A DNA stretch of 64,000 nt from Dictyostelium discoideum (taxonomy: Eukaryota). A model generated the notes under the pieces. The model saw only the letters and a list, made by a program, of their open reading frames with translations, did not search any database and was not told the origin of the DNA. Shown one piece after another: positions 8,817 to 31,305 of the stretch. How positions within the stretch are numbered: the first letter of the stretch is position 1; the number at the start of each line of letters is the position of its first letter. Both the position numbers and the translations under genes were made by a program. Location of the stretch: NCBI GenBank assembly GCA_000004695.1, contig CM000153.2:2592001-2656000 (forward strand), in the 5' to 3' direction.

Positions 8817-10140
8817 TTAATAATTGGTTAAACAGGGAGTGTGGGGTAGTTTTATCTGTCTATTGAAAGACTCTAATCTTTCTTTAAATATTGCAATCTC
8901 TCTATCAATTTCTTCTTGTAAAACTGGGTCAATTTCATCATCATCACCATCACCATCACCATCATCACCCTCTTCATCTTTTATATTTAAATTATAATCA
9001 TCTATATTAATTATATTGTTCCTATTAAAATGATTATTTTCATTATTTTGATTATTTATTATGATTTCTTCTTTAATAATAATAATAGTTTTCTTTTCTT
9101 TTTCTTTTTCATTTTCATTTTTATTTTTCAGTTTATTTTTTGATTTAGAATTTATTTTATTATTATCAAAGTGGTTTGAATTAATGTTTTTAGTATTGTT
9201 TGATTTTGATTTCTTTGATTTCTTGGATTTTTTTTCATCCTCTCCAATAAATTCCAAAATTTCATCTAATGATTTATTTTCAAATTTTAATTTTGCAACC
9301 ATTCTTTCATGTCGCGCTACTGCCTCTTCCAATTCAGATCTTGAACCTCTTTTTAATGACATTATTGCCATTTCAAAATTTTCATCTCTTGGTTCTGTTA
9401 TTTGTAAATTTGAAAATGTCTGTCTCAATTCCTCTGCACTCTTCTCTAAATATATTTATATATATTATCATGTTAATTTTAAATAATAATCTTTTTTTTT
9501 TATTTTTTTATTTTTTTTTTTTATTTTTATTTTCAAAAAAAAAAAAATACAAACGTGAAATTTGAGTAGCAATTTCTTTACTTGTTAAACTAACTAACGA
9601 TTTGATATCTAAGAAATAAGAAGCTGAAGCTAATTCACAAAGATTTAATGGTTTTTTTTGAATGAAATTAAAATCGAATTGAGTTGCTAAAATTGGTGAT
9701 GTATTTGTTGAATGAAATTTACAAAATTCTAAAATCGAATTTAATACACAACCTCTAATATCTGAAAAATAAATTTTAATCTCTTCTTCTGTATTCTTAT
9801 TGATTGATGCTAATAATTTGTCCTCCCTTTTATGAAATATAGATTCACCATCAACTGTAAACCATCCACCTAAACTATTTTTAAATTTTAAACAACCTTT
9901 AACAATATTTTTCACTGTTTTACACATATTAATTATTAATTCGGTTTCCAATTCATATTCTTGATTATCACTTGATAAAATTATAACTCTTTTTGAATTT
10001 TTCATTTTTGGAATTATTAATTCATTTTGTGTTTCAATTGATTGTGGTGATGATGATGATGATGGTGATGGTGATGATGGTGGTAGTGGTAGTGGTAGTG
10101 GTTCTTTTATTTCCATTGAATTTGGTAGTTGTTGTTCCAT
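8817..10140 (-). CDS. Divergent Skp1-family protein (Skp1 POZ + dimerisation region) with Pro/Ser-rich N-terminal and K/N/D-rich C-terminal extensions. Two exons: complement(join(8817..9445,9555..10140)).
   Basis: KRVIILSSDNQEYELETELIINMCKTVKNIV resembles the Skp1 N-terminal domain. ..FDFNFIQKKPLNLCELASASYFLDIKSLVSLTSKEIATQIS|QKSAEELRQTF resembles the Skp1 C-terminal region (IRKTF motif spans the intron). Donor C|GTTTGT at 9554, acceptor tttag at 9447-46, phase 1. Confidence 0.65.
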
Positions 10141-11273: not shown

Positions 11274-12032
11274 GTTAACATTAGAAAAAGATTTACATAT
11301 GCATCCAAAACATTGTGGACCAAATTTATTTACAATTGCAACACAACAACTTTATAGTGAAGTAGAAGGTACATGTACAGGTAGATATGGTTTTATCATT
11401 ACAATTACATCGGTTGATTTCTTATCTAAAGGAAAGGTATTAGAATCATCAGGTTATGTAGTTTTCAATGTTAAATATAAAGCAATCATTTTCAAACCGT
11501 TTAAAGGTGAGGTTTTAGATGCAATCGTTACAAAAGTAACAAATGTATGTTAGTTACAATCATCATTTACAAAAAGAATGAGTAGTGAATCTATCTCTTT
11601 CTCTCTCTCTCTCTCACTCGCCCTCTTTCTTTTACAATCATATTATAATGATTGGTACTAAATAATATATTTTTTATTTTTAAATTATAGCTTGGATTTT
11701 TTGCAGAAGCAGGTCCACTTTCAATTTTTGTATCAACTCAATTGATCCCATCTGATATGATATTCGATGCACAAAGTGCTGTACCATGTTTTGTTTCTGA
11801 AGATGGTTCATCAAAAATCAGTAAAGATGATGAAGTTAGATTACAAATTAAAGGTACTCGTGTTGATGCTACCGAAATTGTATGTATTTGTGCAGCATAT
11901 ATATATATATATAAACCTTTTTCTCTATTTAATAATTTATTAACTCTTTTTTTTTTTAATTTATTTTTAAATTTTTTTTATTAGTTTGCAATTGGTTCAA
12001 TCAGAGAAGATTATTTAGGTGTCATTGGTTAA
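10996..12032 (+). CDS. rpb7: DNA-directed RNA polymerase II subunit RPB7. Four exons: join(10996..11007,11275..11544,11691..11879,11985..12032).
   Basis: Spliced product MFFH|LTLEKDLHMHPKHCGPNL..EVEGTCTGRYGFII..YKAIIFKPFKGEVLDAIVTKVTN|LGFFAEAGPLSIFV..IKGTRVDATEI|FAIGSIREDYLGVIG is collinear with RPB7 over about 172 aa. Donors GTAATT, GTATGT, GTATGT. Intron 1 contains a long (AAT)n run. Confidence 0.85.
11161..11270. repeat. (AAT)n microsatellite inside rpb7 intron 1.
   Basis: Perfect aat repeats. The antisense poly-Y ORF 11060..11323 is an artefact of it. Confidence 0.9.
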
Positions 12033-12243: not shown

Positions 12244-12359
<116 letters not shown>

Positions 12360-12474
12360 TTAATTGTTTAATTATTTATTTATATTATAATATTAATATA
12401 CATTTTCAAAGGTCATTAAGATTGAATTTAGAGAAAAGTTAAAAATCGTCAGCAGAGTCGATTTCAAAATCAAT

Positions 12475-13009
12475 ATCATTTTCTCTTAGTTCAGTGAAAT
12501 CAACTCTTGAATTGAATGTACTCTTTTTAAGTTTTTGTCTAAAATAATAATGATGATGAATGGTAAAGTAGTGGTTAGTAATTGATTTAAAAAAAAATTG
12601 TAAATACAATTAATTAATAAAAAAAAAAAAAAAAAATTTACCTATTAATTAAAGCTATTAATCTTAGGAATTGGAAAAAGTATCTAATAGCAGTTAAGAA
12701 AATAATGACCACACCTTCATAGTCATAATTGTCAGAGCTTGATGAATGAAAATATAAAAATAAACCGCATATAGAAATTACCAAAACAAAAAGATCGAAT
12801 CTATTTGCCCATGTTTGAAAGTACTTTTTCTTTTGTGATATAATTTGTAATATAATTTCAACTGATAATGTAACATTAACCAAAATATCTAGTACTATAA
12901 AAATCCAATGTGATGGTACCGATGTATTCTTTTTTATTAAATTTGTAATTAACTTTTTATTTTTAAAATTGTTTAAAAAAAAAAAAAGTTAGTAGGATAA
13001 AAAAAAAAA

Positions 13010-13106
<97 letters not shown>

Positions 13107-13819
13107 TTAATAATAATATTAATAATAATAATAAATTTAAAATAAATTACCCAAATAATTAAAATTAAATTTAATAATATCATAACAATATATGAATAAT
13201 AATATTTATTTGAAAATAAAACTCTATCAGCATATGTAGAGCATTGCCTATCATGTACCATATAATTATCAAAATTTGATTCGAAATGACTTGTAGAATG
13301 TCCATAATTAGCAGAAAGTGGTGGGAGATCCGATAAATTACCTTCACTACCCATACTATTAGTTAATATAGAATTATTATTATTTCCATTAATGTTGCCA
13401 TTATTATTATTATTATTATTATTATTTCCTAAATTTTTATCGCTTATACTAAATGAGTTATTAATATTATTATTGTTATTATTATTATTGTTTAATTTAT
13501 CATTCGGGTTCAAAGAATTATTGCCCCCATTATTAATATTATTATTATTACCATTATTATTATTATTATTATTATTATTCACTCGTATACTATTTGGTGT
13601 ATTTTGATTACCATTATTGATATTATTATTTCCATTTATATTAATTAAATTATTTGCATTTCCGCTATTATTTCCTATACTAGTATTACTATTTAGTGAA
13701 GTCATATTTGGTGAAAGACCACTTGGAGATAAACGATTACCACTTCTAATAATGTTTAGATTTGATTTACTACCTATTATATCACTACTATCAAGATCCT
13801 TAAAATTACTATCACTCAT
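12475..13819 (-). CDS. Voltage-sensor-domain-like 4-TM protein with a Ser/Asn-rich N-terminus and no pore domain. Three exons: complement(join(12475..12538,12642..12952,13151..13819)).
   Basis: Exon 1 is N/S/G-rich, then YYYSYIVMILLNLILIIW (S1-like). Donor TGG|GTAATT. Intron contains (ATT)n at 13001-13110. Exon 2 KNTSVPSHWIFIVLDILVNVTLSVEIILQIISQKKKYFQTWANRFDLFVLVISICGLF carries the ion_trans S2-S3 signature E..L.I.......YF...WN.FD..IV..S. It is followed by VVIIFLTAIRYFFQFLRLIALINR (S4-like, sparse charges). Donor AG|GTAAAT. Short exon 3 RQKLKKSTFNSRVDFTELREK. The exon 2/3 join and the stop are uncertain (alternative stop TAA at 12638). Confidence 0.5.
13001..13110. repeat. (ATT)n microsatellite in intron 1 of the VSD-like gene.
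   Basis: Perfect ata/att triplets. Read as poly-I in ORF 12989..13819. Confidence 0.9.
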
Positions 13820-13885
13820 CCAATTATTTAATTTATTATAATTTTTTTAATTTTTATTATTATTTATTATTTTTATTTATTACTA

Positions 13886-13974
<89 letters not shown>

Positions 13975-16631
13975 TATTATTATTTATAATTTACACACAA
14001 AATTATTAAAAATAAAAATAAAAAAAAAAAAAAATAAAAAATATTAAACACTTGGGTTTTTATTTTTTTTTTTTATTTTTTTCATTTTTTTTTTATTTTT
14101 TTTATTTTTTTTATTATTTTTATAAAAAAAGTCTTTTCACTATTCCCAAATTCCATTTTTTTTTTTTTTTTTTTTTAACACCAAAATGAAAAATAATATA
14201 ATTTTTTAAAAATATATTTTTTTTTTTTGTTTGGGAATAAAATTTTTAATTAACAATAAAGATAAATTTAATTTAATTAATAAATAAAATTGGTTTACAT
14301 TTTTTTTTTTATTTTATTTTATTTTTTTTTTATTTTCTTTAGAAATAAATTTTTTTTTTTTTTTTTTAAAAATAATAATAAAGATAAATTTAATTTAATT
14401 AATAAATAAAATCTATTGCTTCTTTTTTTTTCTTTTTTTTTTTTTTTTTTTTTAAAATTTTTTATTTTATATATTTTTAAAAATTTAAATTTAGATTACT
14501 TTTGTCAGATATATAAATTAAAATAATAGAATTGTTAGATATAAAAATTTAAAAATTCATTTACACAAAAGTGATACTTTTACAAAAATAAAACGATTTA
14601 CATAAATAGTTTTGGTAATTTACATTTTCCTTACTAATCAAAGAGTATTCATTTATTGATTACTTCACATATATATATTGTTGTGTCAACCAATACAATA
14701 ATGTACATTCACACAATAAATACACCGCACCACTCACATCATCTCTCTCTCTCACTAAAATGACAATATCAAAATTATGTTTATTACTGCAGTATAATCT
14801 GGCCATCTTAATTTTACACTTTTTGATTTATTTTATTCTTCAACTATTTCGTTATCCAAATTTAATTATTAAAATAATTTATTCATTTTAATATGACAAG
14901 ATATCAAGCCTAACCCTTAAAATAACAATTTTTTTTTTTGTTTTTTATTTATTATATCTTTCCATTTAATTTTATTATTTTTAAATATTTTAATTTTAAT
15001 ATGGTAAAATTTAATTTTCACAAACACACACCCAAATTAAACACATCTAAACACACACACACACAAATAACACACCAATAAAACTCTCCCCATTTTAAGA
15101 ATTCAAAGGGACACCACCCACAAACACACAAACAACACATTTTTCTCACAGATATGTTGTTTTAGTTTAGGATATCTCTTTAATATTCAGATATATAAAA
15201 TTATTTTAATATAAGAGGGTACCATATATATATATATATATTGCTTAAATATGTTGTGTTTTTAATTTTATTATTTTAAAATTTTTTATTATACCTCTTT
15301 TTATTAACCCACAAAATAATATAAATGTATGTGGATTATCAGTTTTAGTTTAAAAGATTACAGTGAAAATTAAATTCCAATTCAAATATCAAATGAAATA
15401 TTATAATTATCTATAGATATAAGCTAAAATTTTAGTTGTGTGTGTGTGTGAGCATTTGTTTTTTTTGTGTGTATTTAATATAACTAAATAAATTTATTTA
15501 TGATAATAATTATAATTTTAATTTAATATAATAAAATATCATTATCATTATTTTAAAAACACTTACTAAATAAATAAATAAAAATTATTTCAAATTTTTA
15601 TAATAATTTAATTCATCGACGAATATGCAATCTTTTTAACTGGGATATATATGGAATTATTTTTAATAATGTGTGATATATATAAAATAATAATAATAAT
15701 AATCAATAAAAAAAAAGGGGGGGTAAATAATAATTATATATATTATAATGAATATACTTTATTTTATTTTTTTTTATGTATAAAATATTTTTTAATATAT
15801 AATATATAGGTATTGTTATTATATATATATATTTTTTGACTGTTGTTGTTGTTATTAGTTTTTGGTTGTTGTTATTAATTTTTCAAATAAATCGAATTGA
15901 AATAAAATTCGGACCACCATCACCACACTATTTTGATTTATTTAAATATTTCAATTTTTATTTTTTGGGATAAATTGAACCCCCTTCCACATTTAAATTG
16001 CCCCGGATAAAATCGTACAATATTCTATCCATGTTTTTTGTTAATTAACAAGTGCCCTGTATGCTACCATCAATTAATTTATCTGTCAATAATAAGTTTA
16101 TTGTTGGTATAGATTAAAAAACAATAACAAATTTAAATAAATTATTTTGAAAATAATAAAACATTTTAAATAAAAAAATAAAATAAAATTATAAAAAATA
16201 TTAATAATAATAATTAAAAAAAAAAAAAAAAACTATAAATAAACTTTTTTTTTATTTCATTATTTTAAAATAATAAATAATAATTAATAATAATAATAAT
16301 AAAATAAAAATAATAATAAAAATAATAATAATAAAATAATAGTAAAACACATAACAACACACACATTTTACTTTTTTTTATTGAGATTTTTTTTTTTGAT
16401 TACTATTTTTAATAATAATAATATTTTAAGAAATAGAAAAAATATAAAAAAAAAAAAATATTAAAAAAAACAACATCAATAATAAATTAAATAAATTAAA
16501 TAAATTAATATTTTATTAAATAATCTAAATCAAAATAATTACTAAATACATACACACATATATATTTATATATATAAAATTATTATTTTTTAATTAATTT
16601 AAATAATTAATTATTTGAAGAAAAAAAAAAA

Positions 16632-18914
16632 ATGAAAATAAGTTTTAAAAATTTAATTTTTATTTCATTTTTAATAATAAAAGTTTCATCATATGGTGAA
16701 CCAAATTTAAGAGGTAATCCAAATTGGTTTGAAAGAAGTAATCATGTATTAGTTAATTCAGTTAGAATTGCACCAAAGGAATACCAAAATAGATATACAC
16801 AATTTGGAAATCAAGATGTATTATCTCCATCAATTTATCCATCAGTGCCACCATTATTCTTTGAATTTTCATTAGGAGCATCAGCATTGGCTCATGCAAG
16901 AGATATGTCAATAAACAATTGTTTTTCACATGAATCATGTGATGGAACAGATTCCGATACCAGAATCAATGAATACTATCATTGTGATGAAATCCATGGT
17001 GAAAACATTGCAGCAGGTTATGATTCACCATTGATCACCAATAATCAATGGGTTTGTGATGATGGCACCAATGACCCATACTCAAATCCAACATGTGCTC
17101 AAGATGCTTCAGGTTCCGATGGTCATAGAGCAAATATTATGAATCCAAATTTCAAGGCAATAGGTGTTGGTTTCTCTTTTACCTCTGATAGCACCTACCA
17201 TTCCTACTGGACTCAAGATTTTGGCGCTCAACCATGTTTTAACATTACCAATCAACCAATTCATTCGGGTTCTCATTTATTCTTAAATCAAAACAAATTA
17301 ACTTTTATGGTCGATTGGTATGATCAAGTTGAACCAACCGTTGCTTACGTTGTAATTAGTGGTAAACCTAATAAATTGAATTTAGAAATGGGTTCAAAAT
17401 CAAAAGGTATTTATAGTTTATCAGTCCCAATCGAGAATCAAAAATCAAATGATGATGATAATAAAAAATCAAAAACTCAACAGGCTTCTGATTTTGCAAA
17501 GAAATTATTACATTTAGATTCCTGTAGAGATTATTATTTCTATTTTGAAAAATCAATCATTACAAATACAACAAATTCAACAGTTCAAGTAACTGATAAA
17601 GGTAATGTCACACTCACTTCCTATTCATTTTCAAAATCAACTGAAATCTTTAGATATCCACATTTTGGTTATTTAACTACTTTTGGTGAAGGTAATTGTA
17701 AAAGATCTTATTCAATCAATGGTACTGAATATAATCCTTATAATAATTTTAATTCTACAACTGGAATGCATTCTTCAACTTCATCTTGGTCATCAACTTC
17801 TTCAACTTCTTCGTGGTCTTCAACTTCTTCAACTTCATCATGGTCTTCAACTTCTTCAACCTCTTCATCTCCTTCTACTGTTCCACCAACAAATAATAAT
17901 GGTGGAAATAGTAATAATTCTGAACAACCATCTTCAACAACAACAACTACTACTACATCTTCTACAATAGGTACAACAATGGAACCAACAACTTCAACAA
18001 CAACATCAACAACAACTTCTACAACTATTGAACCAACTACATCATCAACAACAACATCAACAACAACTTCTACAACTGGATCATCATCATCATCATTATC
18101 ATCATCATCATCAGATAAATTTGATTCATTTGAATCATCAATTGAAATATTTAATAGTAACCATAAATTTATTGGATGCTTCAATGATGATATTTCTCAT
18201 GATTTACCATTTAATGAAATTTTTTCAATAAATATGACAAATGATAAATGTGAATCTTATTGTACAAAGAATGGATATAAATATGCTGGAACAGAGTTAG
18301 GAACACAATGCTATTGTGGTAATTCATATGGTCACTATGGTAAAGCTAATAAAGAATCTGATTGTAATTTTAAATGTGGTGGTGATAAATCTAAAATCTG
18401 TGGTGGTAATGATAAAATCTCTGTTTATAAAACAAGTTATAATGGTTGTTTCTCATATGAACCATTGATTGGTCATTTCTCAATCTCTGCAAGTAGTCCA
18501 AATATGACAGTTGAGGGATGTAGAGCTCATTGTTTTAAAAATCATTATTTAATTGCTGGTTTATCACGTGGTAATCTTTGTTTCTGTGGAAATGATACAA
18601 TTTTTGAGCAACAACCACAAACCGAAAATCCCTCAAGACCAAAATCAATTCCAACTTGTAATTCCAAATGTACAGGTTCAAATAAAGAAAATTGTGGTGG
18701 TGTAAATGAAATTTCAATCTATTCAACTGAAAATATTTCAAATCTTTTGGTACCTGATAATTTAAAGGATACATCTTCTTTATTAAATCAAAATCAACAA
18801 CAACAACAACAAGAACAAGAACAAGAACAAAATAATTCACAACCATTATTATTAATATCATTAAAATCATATATATTAATAATAATAATAACAATATTTG
18901 TATCATTAATTTAG
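16632..18914 (+). CDS. Secreted, probably GPI-anchored protein: N-terminal CAP/SCP (bacterial YkwD-like) domain, Ser/Thr-rich mucin linker, two WSC carbohydrate-binding domains, hydrophobic C-terminus. Single exon.
   Basis: Signal peptide MKISFKNLIFISFLIIKVSS. CAP motifs ALAHARDMS..CFSH..GENIAAGY..GHRANIMNPNFKAIGVGF..YWTQDFG. SSTSSWSSTSS and TTSTTTSTTT repeats. Two WSC-type Cys patterns (GCFND..MT..C..YC..GY.YAG.E.G..CYCG..C..KCGG....CGG..VY; CFSY..MT..C..HC....AG...G..CFCG..C..KC.G....CGG). C-terminal LLLISLKSYILIIIITIFVSLI. Confidence 0.75.
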   Translation: MKISFKNLIFISFLIIKVSSYGEPNLRGNPNWFERSNHVLVNSVRIAPKEYQNRYTQFGNQDVLSPSIYPSVPPLFFEFSLGASALAHARDMSINNCFSHESCDGTDSDTRINEYYHCDEIHGENIAAGYDSPLITNNQWVCDDGTNDPYSNPTCAQDASGSDGHRANIMNPNFKAIGVGFSFTSDSTYHSYWTQDFGAQPCFNITNQPIHSGSHLFLNQNKLTFMVDWYDQVEPTVAYVVISGKPNKLNLEMGSKSKGIYSLSVPIENQKSNDDDNKKSKTQQASDFAKKLLHLDSCRDYYFYFEKSIITNTTNSTVQVTDKGNVTLTSYSFSKSTEIFRYPHFGYLTTFGEGNCKRSYSINGTEYNPYNNFNSTTGMHSSTSSWSSTSSTSSWSSTSSTSSWSSTSSTSSSPSTVPPTNNNGGNSNNSEQPSSTTTTTTTSSTIGTTMEPTTSTTTSTTTSTTIEPTTSSTTTSTTTSTTGSSSSSLSSSSSDKFDSFESSIEIFNSNHKFIGCFNDDISHDLPFNEIFSINMTNDKCESYCTKNGYKYAGTELGTQCYCGNSYGHYGKANKESDCNFKCGGDKSKICGGNDKISVYKTSYNGCFSYEPLIGHFSISASSPNMTVEGCRAHCFKNHYLIAGLSRGNLCFCGNDTIFEQQPQTENPSRPKSIPTCNSKCTGSNKENCGGVNEISIYSTENISNLLVPDNLKDTSSLLNQNQQQQQQEQEQEQNNSQPLLLISLKSYILIIIITIFVSLI

Positions 18915-19032: not shown

Positions 19033-20607
19033 CTAACCTAATTTTTTCATTTGATCTTTAATTAATTTTTCAGGATTAATTATATGTAATCTTATTAAAA
19101 TTGATAAAATTCTATTAACAAAATAATAGTATAATTCATAACCTTTTAACATTACTTCTAATGATACTTTCTCTTCAACACTTTTTACTAATCTAATGAT
19201 ACCACTATTTTTTGAAGAATTACTATTTAAACCTTTGGCAGCATAACGAGCCATAATTGAAAATCTATTAACTGGACTACCAAGTTCCATATTGATTGAT
19301 CTTAAAAGGTTATTATTTCTTAAGATTAATAGTAAATGTCTTGGCATTGCTTTCATTAAGAGATTGATATCTTTAAGTCTTTCAATTGCACCTGATAATA
19401 GTTTCTCCAATTCTTCTGATGATATTGAATTTGATAAACCAACTGAAGAACCTTCGAAATTACGCATTAGAATCATTGTTGAGAAAAGTTTCCAATTTTG
19501 TACACCCAATGCTTTACTATATTTTTCAACTTTTTTATTGTTACACAATACTAAATTCTTGTAGAGGTTACAGAAATTCAATCTAAATTCTTCATCGTAC
19601 TCTCTATATAGGCCATGATCCAATAATACTATTTGTGGTTGATTTGGGTGGTTTGGATGTTGTCTAACTAAAACGTTACCAGCATGAGGATCCACATGAA
19701 CAAAGGCATGTATGAAAATTTGTTCACACATAATCTCCATGAATCTTTGAGAGACAGTTTTCTCACTTAAACCCATTGATCTTATGGCTTGAACATTATT
19801 GATTTTACAACCATGAATAAACTCTGTCGTTAGAATTCTCTTTGAAGAATAGGGTCTAAACACTTTTGGAATGTAGGCATTGTTATTTGAAGAGAGATCT
19901 TGAGCGGCACGTTCAGCATTATCAGCCTCTTGAGAGAAATCCAACTCTTTTATTAAAACATTTTTCATTTCCTCAGCCATCCAATTGAATTCAAAATCTG
20001 GGAATGCCATATTGACCAAAGTCAACAAAACATTGTGAGTGAAAATGTCACCATCGAAATTTCTCTGTAAATCTACATATTGCACTTTGACAGCAACCTC
20101 TTCACCCTCCTTTGTAATTGCTCTATGAACTTGTGCTAATGATGCAGCTGCAATTGGTAATCTATCGAAATCAGAGAAATAATGGTTTGGTGCGTTACCT
20201 AAATCCTTTAAGAAAACACTTTCAACTTCGTAGAAATCACGCCATGGTGCTTGATCTTGTAATACTGAGAGTGTTTTAGTATATTGAATTGGTAAGATAT
20301 GATTTAAACTTGCAATATATTGACCTGCTTTAATATATAGTCCACCATTGGTTAAACATAAATCCAATATTAAATCAGCAGATTCTTGATGACATATCTT
20401 TGATTTCTCTAAATATTCCGATGACTTTTCTGGTGTATATGAAAGAATCTTATAATTTATCATAATTTTAGTTGCACATTTCATTGCTCTATAAAATCTA
20501 ACAATAACATTCATCATTGATCCAAAATAACTATCTGGTGTTTCATATGAATAAATTATTAATGCAATTGCTGCTAAAATACTTGCTATAGTTTTCTTAT
20601 AATCTAA

Positions 20608-29557: not shown

Positions 29558-31305
29558 TTAAGCCATATAATTATAAATCTTTCTGTCTTGTTTTGATCTT
29601 TCAAGATATTCTCTTTCAATTAAAGATTCGATACGTTTCTTTACAATGACTGGATTTGGAACAAAACGAGATTGAAGTTGCTTGATGACTTCAGAGACAA
29701 GATTAGAGTGTTCAAGTGTTTTACGAGCTTTCATAATACGAACGATGGAAGCTTCAATTTGATGTTTTCTATCTTCATCAACTTTATCACGAGTTTCTTT
29801 CTCTTCAACTGGTGTTTCTTTTTGAACGACTGCCATAACTTTAACACGGAATAATTTACTCTTAAATTTAGTATTAAAAGCGAATACATCGGATTCATCA
29901 ATTGATTTACTTGGTGTTGGAGTGGAGATTGAAGATGAACTACTAGATGGTGAAGTTGAAGTTGATGATGATGTTGCTGTTGTTGTTGTTGTTGTTGTTG
30001 ATGATGTTGTTGATGGTAATTCTCTATCTAAAATTTTATTCTTTGGATTTGTTAAAGCTAAAAGATTTCTCTTTAAATCAATAGTTGGAATACCAGTTTG
30101 ATCAGCAATCTCTTTAAAGGTTAATTTCGATTGGTCATTAAAGAGTAATAAGATGACCATTTGATAGGAGGAAACTTGAAGTTCGTGAGATTTCGAAGGG
30201 AAGTTTGCTTTAATTTCTGCGGTACCCATATTAGTTTGCCATAACAATAGACGACCATTATGATTTGATAGATAATAAGATTTGAAAGCCTCACAACATA
30301 AGAGGATTTCACGAGGTAAATTACAGTTTGCAGTGTTTTGAGTTGGCCAAAAACCAGTGGTTAAAACGTGAACATTCAAATCGATTGGTAATGCCTTCTT
30401 TAGATTTTGAATATAAGTTTTAAAACCACTCATTGTATCTTGTGATAATCTCATATCGGTGAACATACCCTCCAATTTAGATGTGAATTGATAGCCACAT
30501 TCTGTCTTTAACTTTGCAATCATGTTACGTTCTGCATCGTCTGATATACTTCTACCCAATAATAAACGTTTTGCTAAATGTTGTTTATAGTATTTTTCAA
30601 ATACATCCTTTTCTTGAATTAATCTAAACAACATCAATATCTTATCCAATATGATATCAACCTCTTCTTCACTAACTCCTTTTAATCCTTTCTTTAATTT
30701 CTCATCAATAAATAATGAAATATATTCTGGTGATTTTGGATTTAAATTTATAAAATATTCAAATGCCTAATAATAAAAATTTTAAAAAAAAAAAAAAATA
30801 ATTAGTAAAAACATAAAAAAAAAATAAAAAATATATATATATATATTTTTTTTTTTTATAGTTTTAAAAACTTACTTGTTGAATTGAATGAATGAATTGT
30901 TTATCATTATATAATGCATTTTGTAAAAGGTTATCATATTTATCTTTAAGATCTAATAATGATTGGAAATAAGTACCTGATTCTTTTGTCTAGATTTATT
31001 AATTATTATTATTTTTAAAATAAAAAAAATATTAATATCATGATATTAATTCCTTTTTTTTTTTTTACTTTTATTTTATAAATTATAAATTATATATTTA
31101 CCTTTTCTTCATCCATTACTATTCCTCTACCAATTTCTTTAACATAACTACTAATTACATCTTTCATTAAATTTAAACCATCTGATACTCTACTAAATAA
31201 ATTATACATTCTCTTTAAATCTTCAATCTTATCATCTTTTAACATTGAAATTAAACCAGAGTTTTCCATCTTTTTTTTTTTTTTTTGAAAAAAATAATTT
31301 ATTAA

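Follow-up and report, generated by a model that had tools for sequence, protein, structure and literature searches.

A stretch of 64,000 nucleotides of Dictyostelium discoideum DNA (contig CM000153.2, positions 2,592,001 to 2,656,000 of the forward strand; hereafter the window) carries on its minus strand the gene DDB_G0284893, whose product, as judged from its sequence and predicted structure, is a stand-alone voltage-sensor domain (VSD) protein of five helices (S0–S4) with neither a pore nor an enzyme domain. We are highly confident of the joint conclusion that the gene is real, that its product is a VSD standing alone, that it belongs to a conserved and distinct family homologous to the sensors of Cav and Nav channels and of voltage-sensing phosphatases (VSPs), and that this family has kept the polar network of a voltage sensor while remodelling S4. 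To our knowledge, the established pore-less voltage-sensor proteins are of three kinds only, namely Hv1, VSP, and TMEM266, each of which altered views of what voltage sensors control. The family described here is a fourth kind, conserved and clearly delimited by an intact countercharge network together with a minimal, alpha-helical S4 bearing two Arg residues. The gene annotation and an automatic Ion_trans label were known already, while the family appears to be undescribed, as do its architecture and its distinctive S4.

Voltage-sensor identity and homology

The Pfam Ion_trans profile (PF00520) matches residues 208–327 of the product with 33.3 bits against a gathering score of 25 (E = 3.6e-8). 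Coverage is limited to profile positions 6–111 of 241, that is, to S1–S4, and positions 112–241, which lie beyond S4, have no match in DDB_G0284893. A first-pass annotation of the window had called a pore-less, voltage-sensor-like membrane protein here from an S2–S3 signature (SVEIILQIISQKKKYFQTWANRFDLFVLVIS) and an S4 string (AIRYFFQFLRLIALINRQKLKK); both are found in the exon-derived protein, and the profile search that it proposed is the one that returned this significant, S1–S4-restricted match. Weak Pfam matches below the cut-offs (TMD0_ABC, DUF2663, and EBP) were put down to generic transmembrane similarity.

A structure was predicted, as had also been suggested, using the core of the orthologue from D. 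citrinum (3 substitutions in 170 residues relative to DDB_G0284893). Given an alignment of 124 sequences, AlphaFold returned a confident core model of five helices, S0–S4 (predicted local distance difference test, pLDDT, 85.2; predicted template modelling score, pTM, 0.71), whereas with only 5 sequences the model was unusable (pLDDT 54). S1–S4 form a four-helix antiparallel bundle as in the VSD superfamily, in whose canonical topology both termini are cytosolic, and the nearest solved folds are the voltage sensors of Ci-VSP, Nav, Cav, and CatSper.

Searched against PDB sequences, a profile of the 124 relatives matched Cav2.2 (3e-32 in total, the four repeats matching separately and repeat IV at 8e-10), Nav1.5 (4e-24), TPTE2 (8e-12), and Ci-VSP (1.7e-9). 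With hhalign, the family aligned to TPTE2 with a probability of 95% (E = 3.8e-8), S4 included, and to NavAb with a probability of 90% over S0–S3. A VSP-type VSD is the best match in both fold and profile–profile comparison, yet identity is 13%–19%, the S4 register needs a gap, and Ci-VSP aligns over S1–S3 only. On the evidence of these alignments, S0–S3 are homologous to the Cav/Nav repeats and to the VSD of voltage-sensing phosphatases.

Gene model and absence of a pore

DDB_G0284893 is a real three-exon gene. Splicing the three exons yields a 359-amino-acid (aa) product of the minus strand that is 100% identical along its whole length to the hypothetical protein DDB_G0284893 annotated in D. 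discoideum AX4, in agreement with the three-exon structure first proposed; its UniRef label is 'Ion transport domain-containing'. The parts of the gene are as follows.

13819..12439, minus strand: whole gene DDB_G0284893, spliced and translated, with ATG at 13819 and TAA at 12441-12439
13819..13151, minus strand: exon 1, 223 codons, encoding the Asn/Ser/Gly-rich cytosolic N-terminus (residues 1 to ~185), S0, and most of S1 (to residue 223)
13150..12953, minus strand: intron 1, GT..AG, 198 nucleotides (nt), 96% A+T, mostly an (AAT)41.7 array
12952..12642, minus strand: exon 2, encoding the end of S1, S2, S3, and S4 (residues 224-326 plus 2 nt of codon 327)
12641..12539, minus strand: intron 2, GT..AG, 103 nt, splitting codon R327 (AG|A)
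12538..12439, minus strand: exon 3, encoding the polybasic post-S4 linker (R327, K329, K331, K332), the conserved tail SRVDFTELRENDIDFEIDSADDF, and the stop codon

The window is ~80% A+T, with AT-rich introns and poly-Asn tracts. Both introns of the gene have clean GT..AG ends, with donors at 13150 and 12641 exactly as first assigned, and the orthologues run continuously across the intron 1 junction (IIW|LITNLI) and colinearly across that of intron 2, where they read LIKRQK. Exon 2 is the core of the Ion_trans match. Several particulars of the first-pass annotation needed revision. It ended the gene near 12475, whereas the stop codon lies at 12441..12439, 36 nt farther on; the short C-terminal end that it described stands, but 27 residues follow ...QKLKK rather than about 20. 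The S1-like helix that it placed in exon 2 does exist, but S1 (YYYSYIVMILLNLILIIWLITNLI) occupies the end of exon 1 and runs across the junction with exon 2, and the hydrophobic stretch opening exon 2 is the start of S2, not S1. Because the true S1 sits at the end of exon 1, the low-complexity N-terminus, rightly recognized as such, spans ~185 aa rather than about 220.

Trinucleotide arrays lie in and around the gene. An in-frame (ATT)17 at 13529-13579 encodes the poly-Asn of exon 1, and the near-perfect (AAT)41.7 at 13010-13134 fills most of intron 1. Outside the coding region, (TTA)49.7 at 13833-13984 is immediately upstream of the ATG, and (TAT)28.3 at 12244-12328 (100% match) is in the 3' flank.

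The last membrane residue of S4 is N326, and the protein stops 32 residues later with the C-terminus ...DSADDF*; six dictyostelid orthologues are colinear with it and end at the same place (...D-S-S-D-F). Neither flank of DDB_G0284893 holds exons coding for S5-P-S6, because the flanks consist of a convergent Rpb7-like gene downstream and, upstream, a 2.8 kb A+T-rich spacer with no open reading frame (ORF) longer than 52 aa. The search of both flanks for missing pore exons recommended at the outset was therefore without yield, and the original statement that the protein has no S5-P-S6 pore agrees with these flanks and with the C-terminus shared by the six orthologues.

Polar network of S0–S3

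Residue numbers below are those of DDB_G0284893, and residue counts are over 142 family members unless stated otherwise. The predicted helices map to the window as follows.

13214..13267, minus strand: S0, amphipathic pre-S1 helix, residues 185-202 (AlphaFold helix 3-20)
12935..13210, minus strand: S1, residues 204-229, interrupted by intron 1 (AlphaFold helix 22-47)
12815..12907, minus strand: S2, residues 239-269 (AlphaFold helix 57-87)
12737..12811, minus strand: S3, residues 271-295 (AlphaFold helix 89-113)
12511..12718, minus strand: S4 and its helical cytosolic extension, residues 302-336, interrupted by intron 2 (AlphaFold single helix 120-154)

S0 carries the motif A-[ND]-R-x-x-F-S, with Arg at the R199 position in 114 of the members covering it, and aligns with the S0 region of the Cav2.2 repeats. 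At the position of Asn217 in S1, the family has N in 99 members, S in 24, C in 5, T in 4, Q in 4, and A in 2, and there is no Asp or Glu among these six commonest residues, which cover 138/142 members. Asn217 stands opposite the S1 Asp of TPTE2 in the hhalign alignment (the chain running from the family through TPTE2 and Ci-VSP to Hv1), consistent with the earlier remark that S1 lacks an Hv1-type Asp.

S2 contains the outer acid D245 (E/D in 138/142), the inner acid E255 (E/D in 141/142), N249, and Q259 (a position held by R/K in 115/142), together with L252 at the charge-transfer-centre position, where L is found in 99/142 members and F in only 9/142. S3 contributes N273 (N in 135/142) and D276, the inner acid of the charge-transfer centre (D/E in all 142/142). 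The turn between the two helices has the Nav/Cav-type motif Y-F-x-x-x-x-N273-x-F-D276, its W/S-N-x-F-D portion aligning with Nav and Cav repeats, and the S3–S4 loop is acidic in the family. Against NavAb, hhalign pairs L252 with F56 of the hydrophobic constriction, E255 with E59, and D276 with D80, so that the charge-transfer centre keeps Glu255 and Asp276 with Leu252 at the aromatic position. Based on the family counts and the NavAb pairings, the countercharge scaffold appears intact save for Leu as the aromatic plug, and the polar network of a working VSD (Asn217, Asp245, Glu255, and Asp276) is retained in the alignments.

The helices differ in how one-faced their conservation is, with a ratio of periodic power at 100 degrees to that at 120 degrees (P100/P120) of 6.7–14.7 in S2 and S4 and ~1.9 in S1 and S3. 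The less one-faced pattern of S1 and S3 would fit an extra conserved outer surface, as expected of an auxiliary or modular VSD subunit whose lipid-facing surface docks on another protein (a pore-only channel, transporter, or receptor) and which confers voltage or lipid sensitivity on that protein, or merely aids its assembly and trafficking. However, the weak periodicity equally fits tight packing within the bundle. The nearest sequence relatives of the family are VSDs normally packed against pores, and VSP-type VSD-only proteins co-assemble functionally with the pore-only Kir2.1 via a hydrophobic interface (bioRxiv 10.64898/2026.08.07.743441), both of which lend this reading some force. No pore-type gene, though, is present in the window or beside the Basidiobolus orthologue, even if gene neighbourhood says little in eukaryotes anyway. 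We consider a role as an auxiliary subunit unlikely.

A remodelled S4 with two arginines

The S4 of DDB_G0284893 (AIRYFFQFLRLIALIN) has no Trp and no Arg triplet, and its basic residues R313, R320, and R327 are spaced 7 and 7 apart. Conservation across the family reaches 142/142 at the R313 position, 105/142 at Gln317, and 139/142 at the R320 position, with Tyr314 adjoining R313, and the S4 core has exactly two K/R in 128/142 members. The family pattern is R-x6-R followed by K/R at +6, from which R327 of D. discoideum is one position off. The recurrence of basic residues every 7 positions, remarked on from the D. discoideum sequence, is accordingly a strict family trait for R313 and R320 but not for the third residue. 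An every-third RxxRxxR pattern is absent from S4, R313 and R320 being seven apart. Conservation along the helix is alpha-helical, with a peak at 90–100 degrees rather than 120 and a power at 100 degrees 6.7 times that at 120, and a single 140-degree arc holds L, R313, Y, Q317, R320, and L.

The matches to Cav, Nav, NavAb, and Ci-VSP do not extend as far as S4, and human TPTE2 alone aligns through it. R313 falls at the position of Ci-VSP R226, and R320 at that of R232 with a one-residue gap opposite Gln317, while the basic residues at +6 and +9 after R320 return to a three-residue register. Because of this spacing, the periodicity, the gap in the TPTE2 alignment, and the downstream register, S4 has the appearance of a canonical S4 from which most charges have disappeared and in which one residue has been inserted where the outer half meets the inner. 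As aligned and modelled, S4 is remodelled such that R313 and R320 lie two alpha-helical turns apart, with Gln317 between them on the same face and Leu at the charge-transfer centre. The S4 of human TPTE2 (PDB 9c49_A) is itself irregular, with an Arg spacing of 6-3-6-3 and Ile at the position of Ci-VSP R229.

A VSD of this composition could itself be a permeation path, through a natural gating-pore (omega-type) or Hv-like conductance in which the crevice stays hydrated in at least one S4 position and passes protons or small cations drawn by D245, E255, and D276. Two K/R in S4 (128/142), Q between them (105/142), and L rather than F at the plug (99/142) are all what such a pathway would call for, and Arg-to-Gln changes in S4 of domain II of Nav1.4 produce gating-pore currents. 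Conducting stand-alone VSDs are known in Hv1, and gating-pore currents after S4 Arg replacement are described in two reports (PMC3982104, PMC10651576). Replacement of the S1 Asp of Hv1, moreover, alters selectivity without abolishing conduction (PMC10377628). An S1 filter position that is Asn or Ser in 123/142 members, with no Asp or Glu among its six commonest residues (138/142), the absence of RxWRxxR, and an hhalign probability of 4% against human Hv1 nonetheless speak against conduction, VSDs with polar S1–S3 residues are mostly non-conducting, and a simple leak would leave the strongly conserved cytosolic tail motif unexplained. On balance, a conductance through the VSD seems improbable to us.

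Basic linker and acidic tail

In the AlphaFold model, S4 continues into the cytosol as one 35-residue helix, which ends at residue 336 and is followed by 23 mostly acidic, non-helical residues. A K/R cluster lies at the membrane edge after S4 (family positions 137-142), and ~10 residues beyond it the acidic tail carries the motif [VI]-D-F-[ST]-x-[LIV], conserved across dictyostelids; its core, [FWY]-x-x-[LIV], is present in 65/89 members covering it. The D. discoideum tail sequence VDFTEL fits the same loose core in the LC3-interacting region (LIR) motif bound by Atg8, an observation that serves as a lead only. Gamma-ear acidic-Phe and two-phenylalanines-in-an-acidic-tract (FFAT) readings of the tail were set aside, because VDFTEL does not seem to fit these stricter patterns.

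The conserved basic residues at all three cytosolic helix ends are also what one would expect of a static VSD-like module that has lost voltage sensing, as in the S1–S4 of transient receptor potential (TRP) channels or domain I of two-pore channels (TPCs). Both Arg residues would then be permanently paired with the S2/S3 acids, and the rim formed by R199, K264-266, and R327-K332 would bind phosphoinositide or another ligand. A sparse, alpha-helical S4 and weak PKD_channel matches in five family members point the same way. Full conservation of both charge-transfer-centre acids and both Arg residues would be needed equally by a moving sensor, however, the sequence defines no ligand site, and a static module differs from the explanation that we favour (below) in its stimulus alone. 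We think it quite unlikely that the protein is static in this sense.

A conserved eukaryotic family

A HMMER scan of 1.84 billion representative proteins with a dictyostelid profile (exon 2 plus orthologues) returned 461 relatives, nearly all of them 90–380 aa in length; for 118, E was <=1e-10. Among the best 150 of the 461, lengths are 93–376 aa, save for one fused model of 1310 aa, and the chain continues past the VSD for a median of 39 aa and at most 175 aa. Pfam recognized Ion_trans in 109/124 members and no other recurrent domain, and no pore domain was found in any relative. Two word-index homology searches, the first scoring only the 8000 candidates that shared most words, yielded 10 and 13 proteins, respectively, and added two named species.

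Six other dictyostelid orthologues share 60%–98% identity over the core (98% in Dictyostelium citrinum); named members from this group belong to D. citrinum, Polysphondylium, Tieghemostelium, Acytostelium, and Heterostelium. Outside it, the named members are those of the amoeba Balamuthia mandrillaris and of the fungi Ramicandelaber brevisporus and Basidiobolus ranarum, and the genes neighbouring the Basidiobolus member are unrelated, with no pore-type gene among them. The remaining relatives are from environmental contigs, mostly of ~1 kb in cluster look-ups, and include a complete 189-aa ORF between in-frame stops on a 927-nt contig. One cluster member came from a catalogue labelled 'merc', which we take to mean a marine eukaryote catalogue. 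DDB_G0284893 is one member of a large conserved eukaryotic family, whose proteins measure 150–380 aa, not a Dictyostelium oddity.

Gene models vary among the dictyostelids. Acytostelium subglobosum has two paralogues (P0003 and P0004, 60% and 64% identity to the D. discoideum query), while one each was returned for the others. The Heterostelium album model PPL_07955 (P0005) is missing 8 residues of S1, exactly where exons 1 and 2 meet in D. discoideum, and has 26 extra residues past the conserved C-terminus; its splice sites and stop are probably mis-called.

The same material bears on whether DDB_G0284893 might itself be an annotation artefact, either what truncation or decay has left of a six-transmembrane channel gene or a mis-joined model. 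Its N-terminal half is of low complexity, the 1310-aa model (P0007) is a clear fusion artefact, and the splice sites of P0005 are doubtful. Yet the dictyostelid orthologues are 60%–98% identical over the core and end at a common C-terminus, more than 100 distant relatives share the short architecture, the functional residues are invariant, both introns are clean, and one relative is a complete ORF with flanking stops. An artefact of this sort is close to refuted.

Favoured mechanism

We propose, tentatively, that DDB_G0284893 is not a classical channel but a sensor of low gating charge in which the linker conveys the position of S4 to a partner-binding tail motif. Membrane voltage would set the position of S4, with a gating charge of at most ~2 elementary charges; ions acting on the acidic S3–S4 loop, or lipids on the basic cytosolic rim, might adjust that position. 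Judged by helix geometry and alignment, R313 would pair with the outer acid D245 and R320 with the inner E255/D276, placing Gln317 beside Leu252 at the constriction. The position of S4 would be passed along the unbroken helix to the polybasic juxtamembrane linker (R327, K329, K331, and K332) and then to the acidic tail motif [VI]-D-F-[ST]-x-[LIV], which would engage a cytosolic or membrane partner. The logic would be that of a voltage-sensing phosphatase with its effector supplied in trans. The near-invariant countercharges and two S4 Arg residues, the helical extension of S4, the conserved K/R cluster, and the DF-x-x-L tail all support such a scheme.

Several observations weigh against it. 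With two Arg residues and Leu at the charge-transfer centre, S4 may be immobile, and the Arg–acid pairings above come from helix geometry and alignment rather than measured distances. A profile of S3, S4, and the tail matched no S4 of any solved voltage sensor, and the analogy with VSP coupling is weak because of this. The tail motif is short and missing in about a quarter of members. Finally, we found in the literature searched no description of the gene or family and no experiment on any member. Taken as a whole, the combination of stand-alone VSD identity and a sensor–transducer mechanism is the best explanation that we have, and we would put it just short of an even call.

Neighbouring genes

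Five further genes or matches in the window were assigned as follows.

11299-11984, plus strand: Rpb7/Rpc25-type gene, downstream and convergent, with an SHS2 domain (PF03876, E 1.8e-12)
16632-18914, plus strand: CAP/WSC gene, upstream neighbour on the opposite strand, 760 aa with a CAP domain, two WSC domains, and a Ser/Thr-rich linker
19033-20517, minus strand: ABC1 atypical kinase (Pfam E 1.2e-78)
29558-30649, minus strand: cullin, C-terminal half with neddylation domain (E 3e-95)
9508-10140, minus strand: Skp1-POZ-like protein, weak match

The Rpb7-type neighbour is broken into two or more ORF pieces and so presumably contains an intron. No large ORF in the 64-kb window is a channel or pore-type gene, and several of them (1509, 1389, and 786 aa) had no Pfam match at E<=1e-5. 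The P0007 gene model of another dictyostelid fuses a homologue of the CAP/WSC protein to the voltage-sensor protein; this fusion is probably an annotation artefact, and because it joins homologues of both, the CAP/WSC–sensor neighbourhood seems conserved.

Implications

The family raises the questions of how few charges make a sensor, what the output is of a VSD having neither pore nor enzyme, and whether such proteins originated by pore loss from Cav/Nav-like repeats. The organisms that host it are not known to have classical Nav or Cav channels. It is conceivable, although somewhat unlikely, that the family represents a fourth ancient class spread across Amoebozoa, early-diverging fungi, and many uncultured eukaryotes and working by a principle undescribed for VSDs. 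That principle might be an evolved gating-pore ('omega') pathway on an R-x3-Q-x2-R alpha-helical S4, or it might be a voltage sensor that exposes a short linear motif by which cytosolic machinery is recruited; if either is true, membrane potential would feed directly into non-channel cell biology in cells that are not excitable. Should the family instead prove to be a static scaffold, it would still mark a boundary of the Ion_trans superfamily and set right the generic label 'ion transport'. In Dictyostelium, a haploid organism open to genetics, and with a core of only ~170 residues, knockout, localization, voltage-clamp fluorometry, and structure determination are feasible.

Comparison with known voltage-sensor proteins

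The first-pass annotation held that the protein matches neither Hv1 nor VSP, and this proved correct; the defining features of these two and of TMEM266 are all missing (those of TMEM266 by published description). As far as sequence comparison can tell, the family is distinct from all three.

Hv1 has an Asp (or Glu) filter in mid-S1, the S4 signature RxWRxxR, and a dimerizing C-terminal coiled coil, whereas the family has Asn217 (N/S in 123/142), no such signature, and no heptad-repeat segment long enough for a coiled coil. The alignment with the human Hv1 VSD (sequence checked against PDB 5OQK) reached an hhalign probability of 4% over S2–S3 only, compared with 95% for TPTE2 and 90% for NavAb. 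Hv1 identity was ruled out on these four counts, and a review of Hv channels lists no Hv gene in D. discoideum (PMC10377628).

VSPs (Ci-VSP and TPTE2) are alike in having a stand-alone S1–S4 not joined to a pore and a basic linker after S4, and they give the best profile–profile match, TPTE2 being the sole one to include S4 and likewise irregular there. However, a PTEN-like phosphatase and C2 domain follow the linker in VSPs, and Pfam found neither in DDB_G0284893 nor in any of 124 members, as the first reading of the gene had supposed for the phosphatase; because there is no phosphatase, VSP identity is excluded. VSP S4 helices carry four or five Arg residues rather than two, the VSP S1 Asp is replaced by Asn in the family, and the effector in DDB_G0284893, if any, is a ~30-residue acidic tail.

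TMEM266 (HVRP1, C15orf27) is similarly VSD-only, keeps the charge-transfer-centre acids, and has no known effector, conductance, or physiological role (PMC6392501). It is described as having RXXRXXR, Phe at the charge-transfer centre, a dimerizing post-S4 coiled coil, and ~250 further disordered residues (PMC6392501). The family has no RXXRXXR, Leu for Phe, no coiled coil, and a tail of 27–32 aa, and because the four described features are absent, TMEM266 identity is excluded by published features. Moreover, TMEM266 is highly conserved in vertebrates according to a review (PMC13095418), whereas the named members of the family are from Amoebozoa and early-diverging fungi.

The strongest sequence similarity is to Cav/Nav repeats and NavAb-type channels, with which the family shares the S0 helix, the S1 Asn, E-x3-R in S2, and the Y-F-x-x-x-W/S-N-x-F-D signature of S2–S3. 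It differs from them in being without an S4–S5 linker, S5, P-loop, and S6, in alignments that end before S4, and in the replacement of the constriction aromatic by Leu. The charge-poor S1–S4 domains of TPC domain I, TRP channels, and polycystins, by comparison, are always fused to a pore and are usually without the full countercharge set that is invariant in the family.

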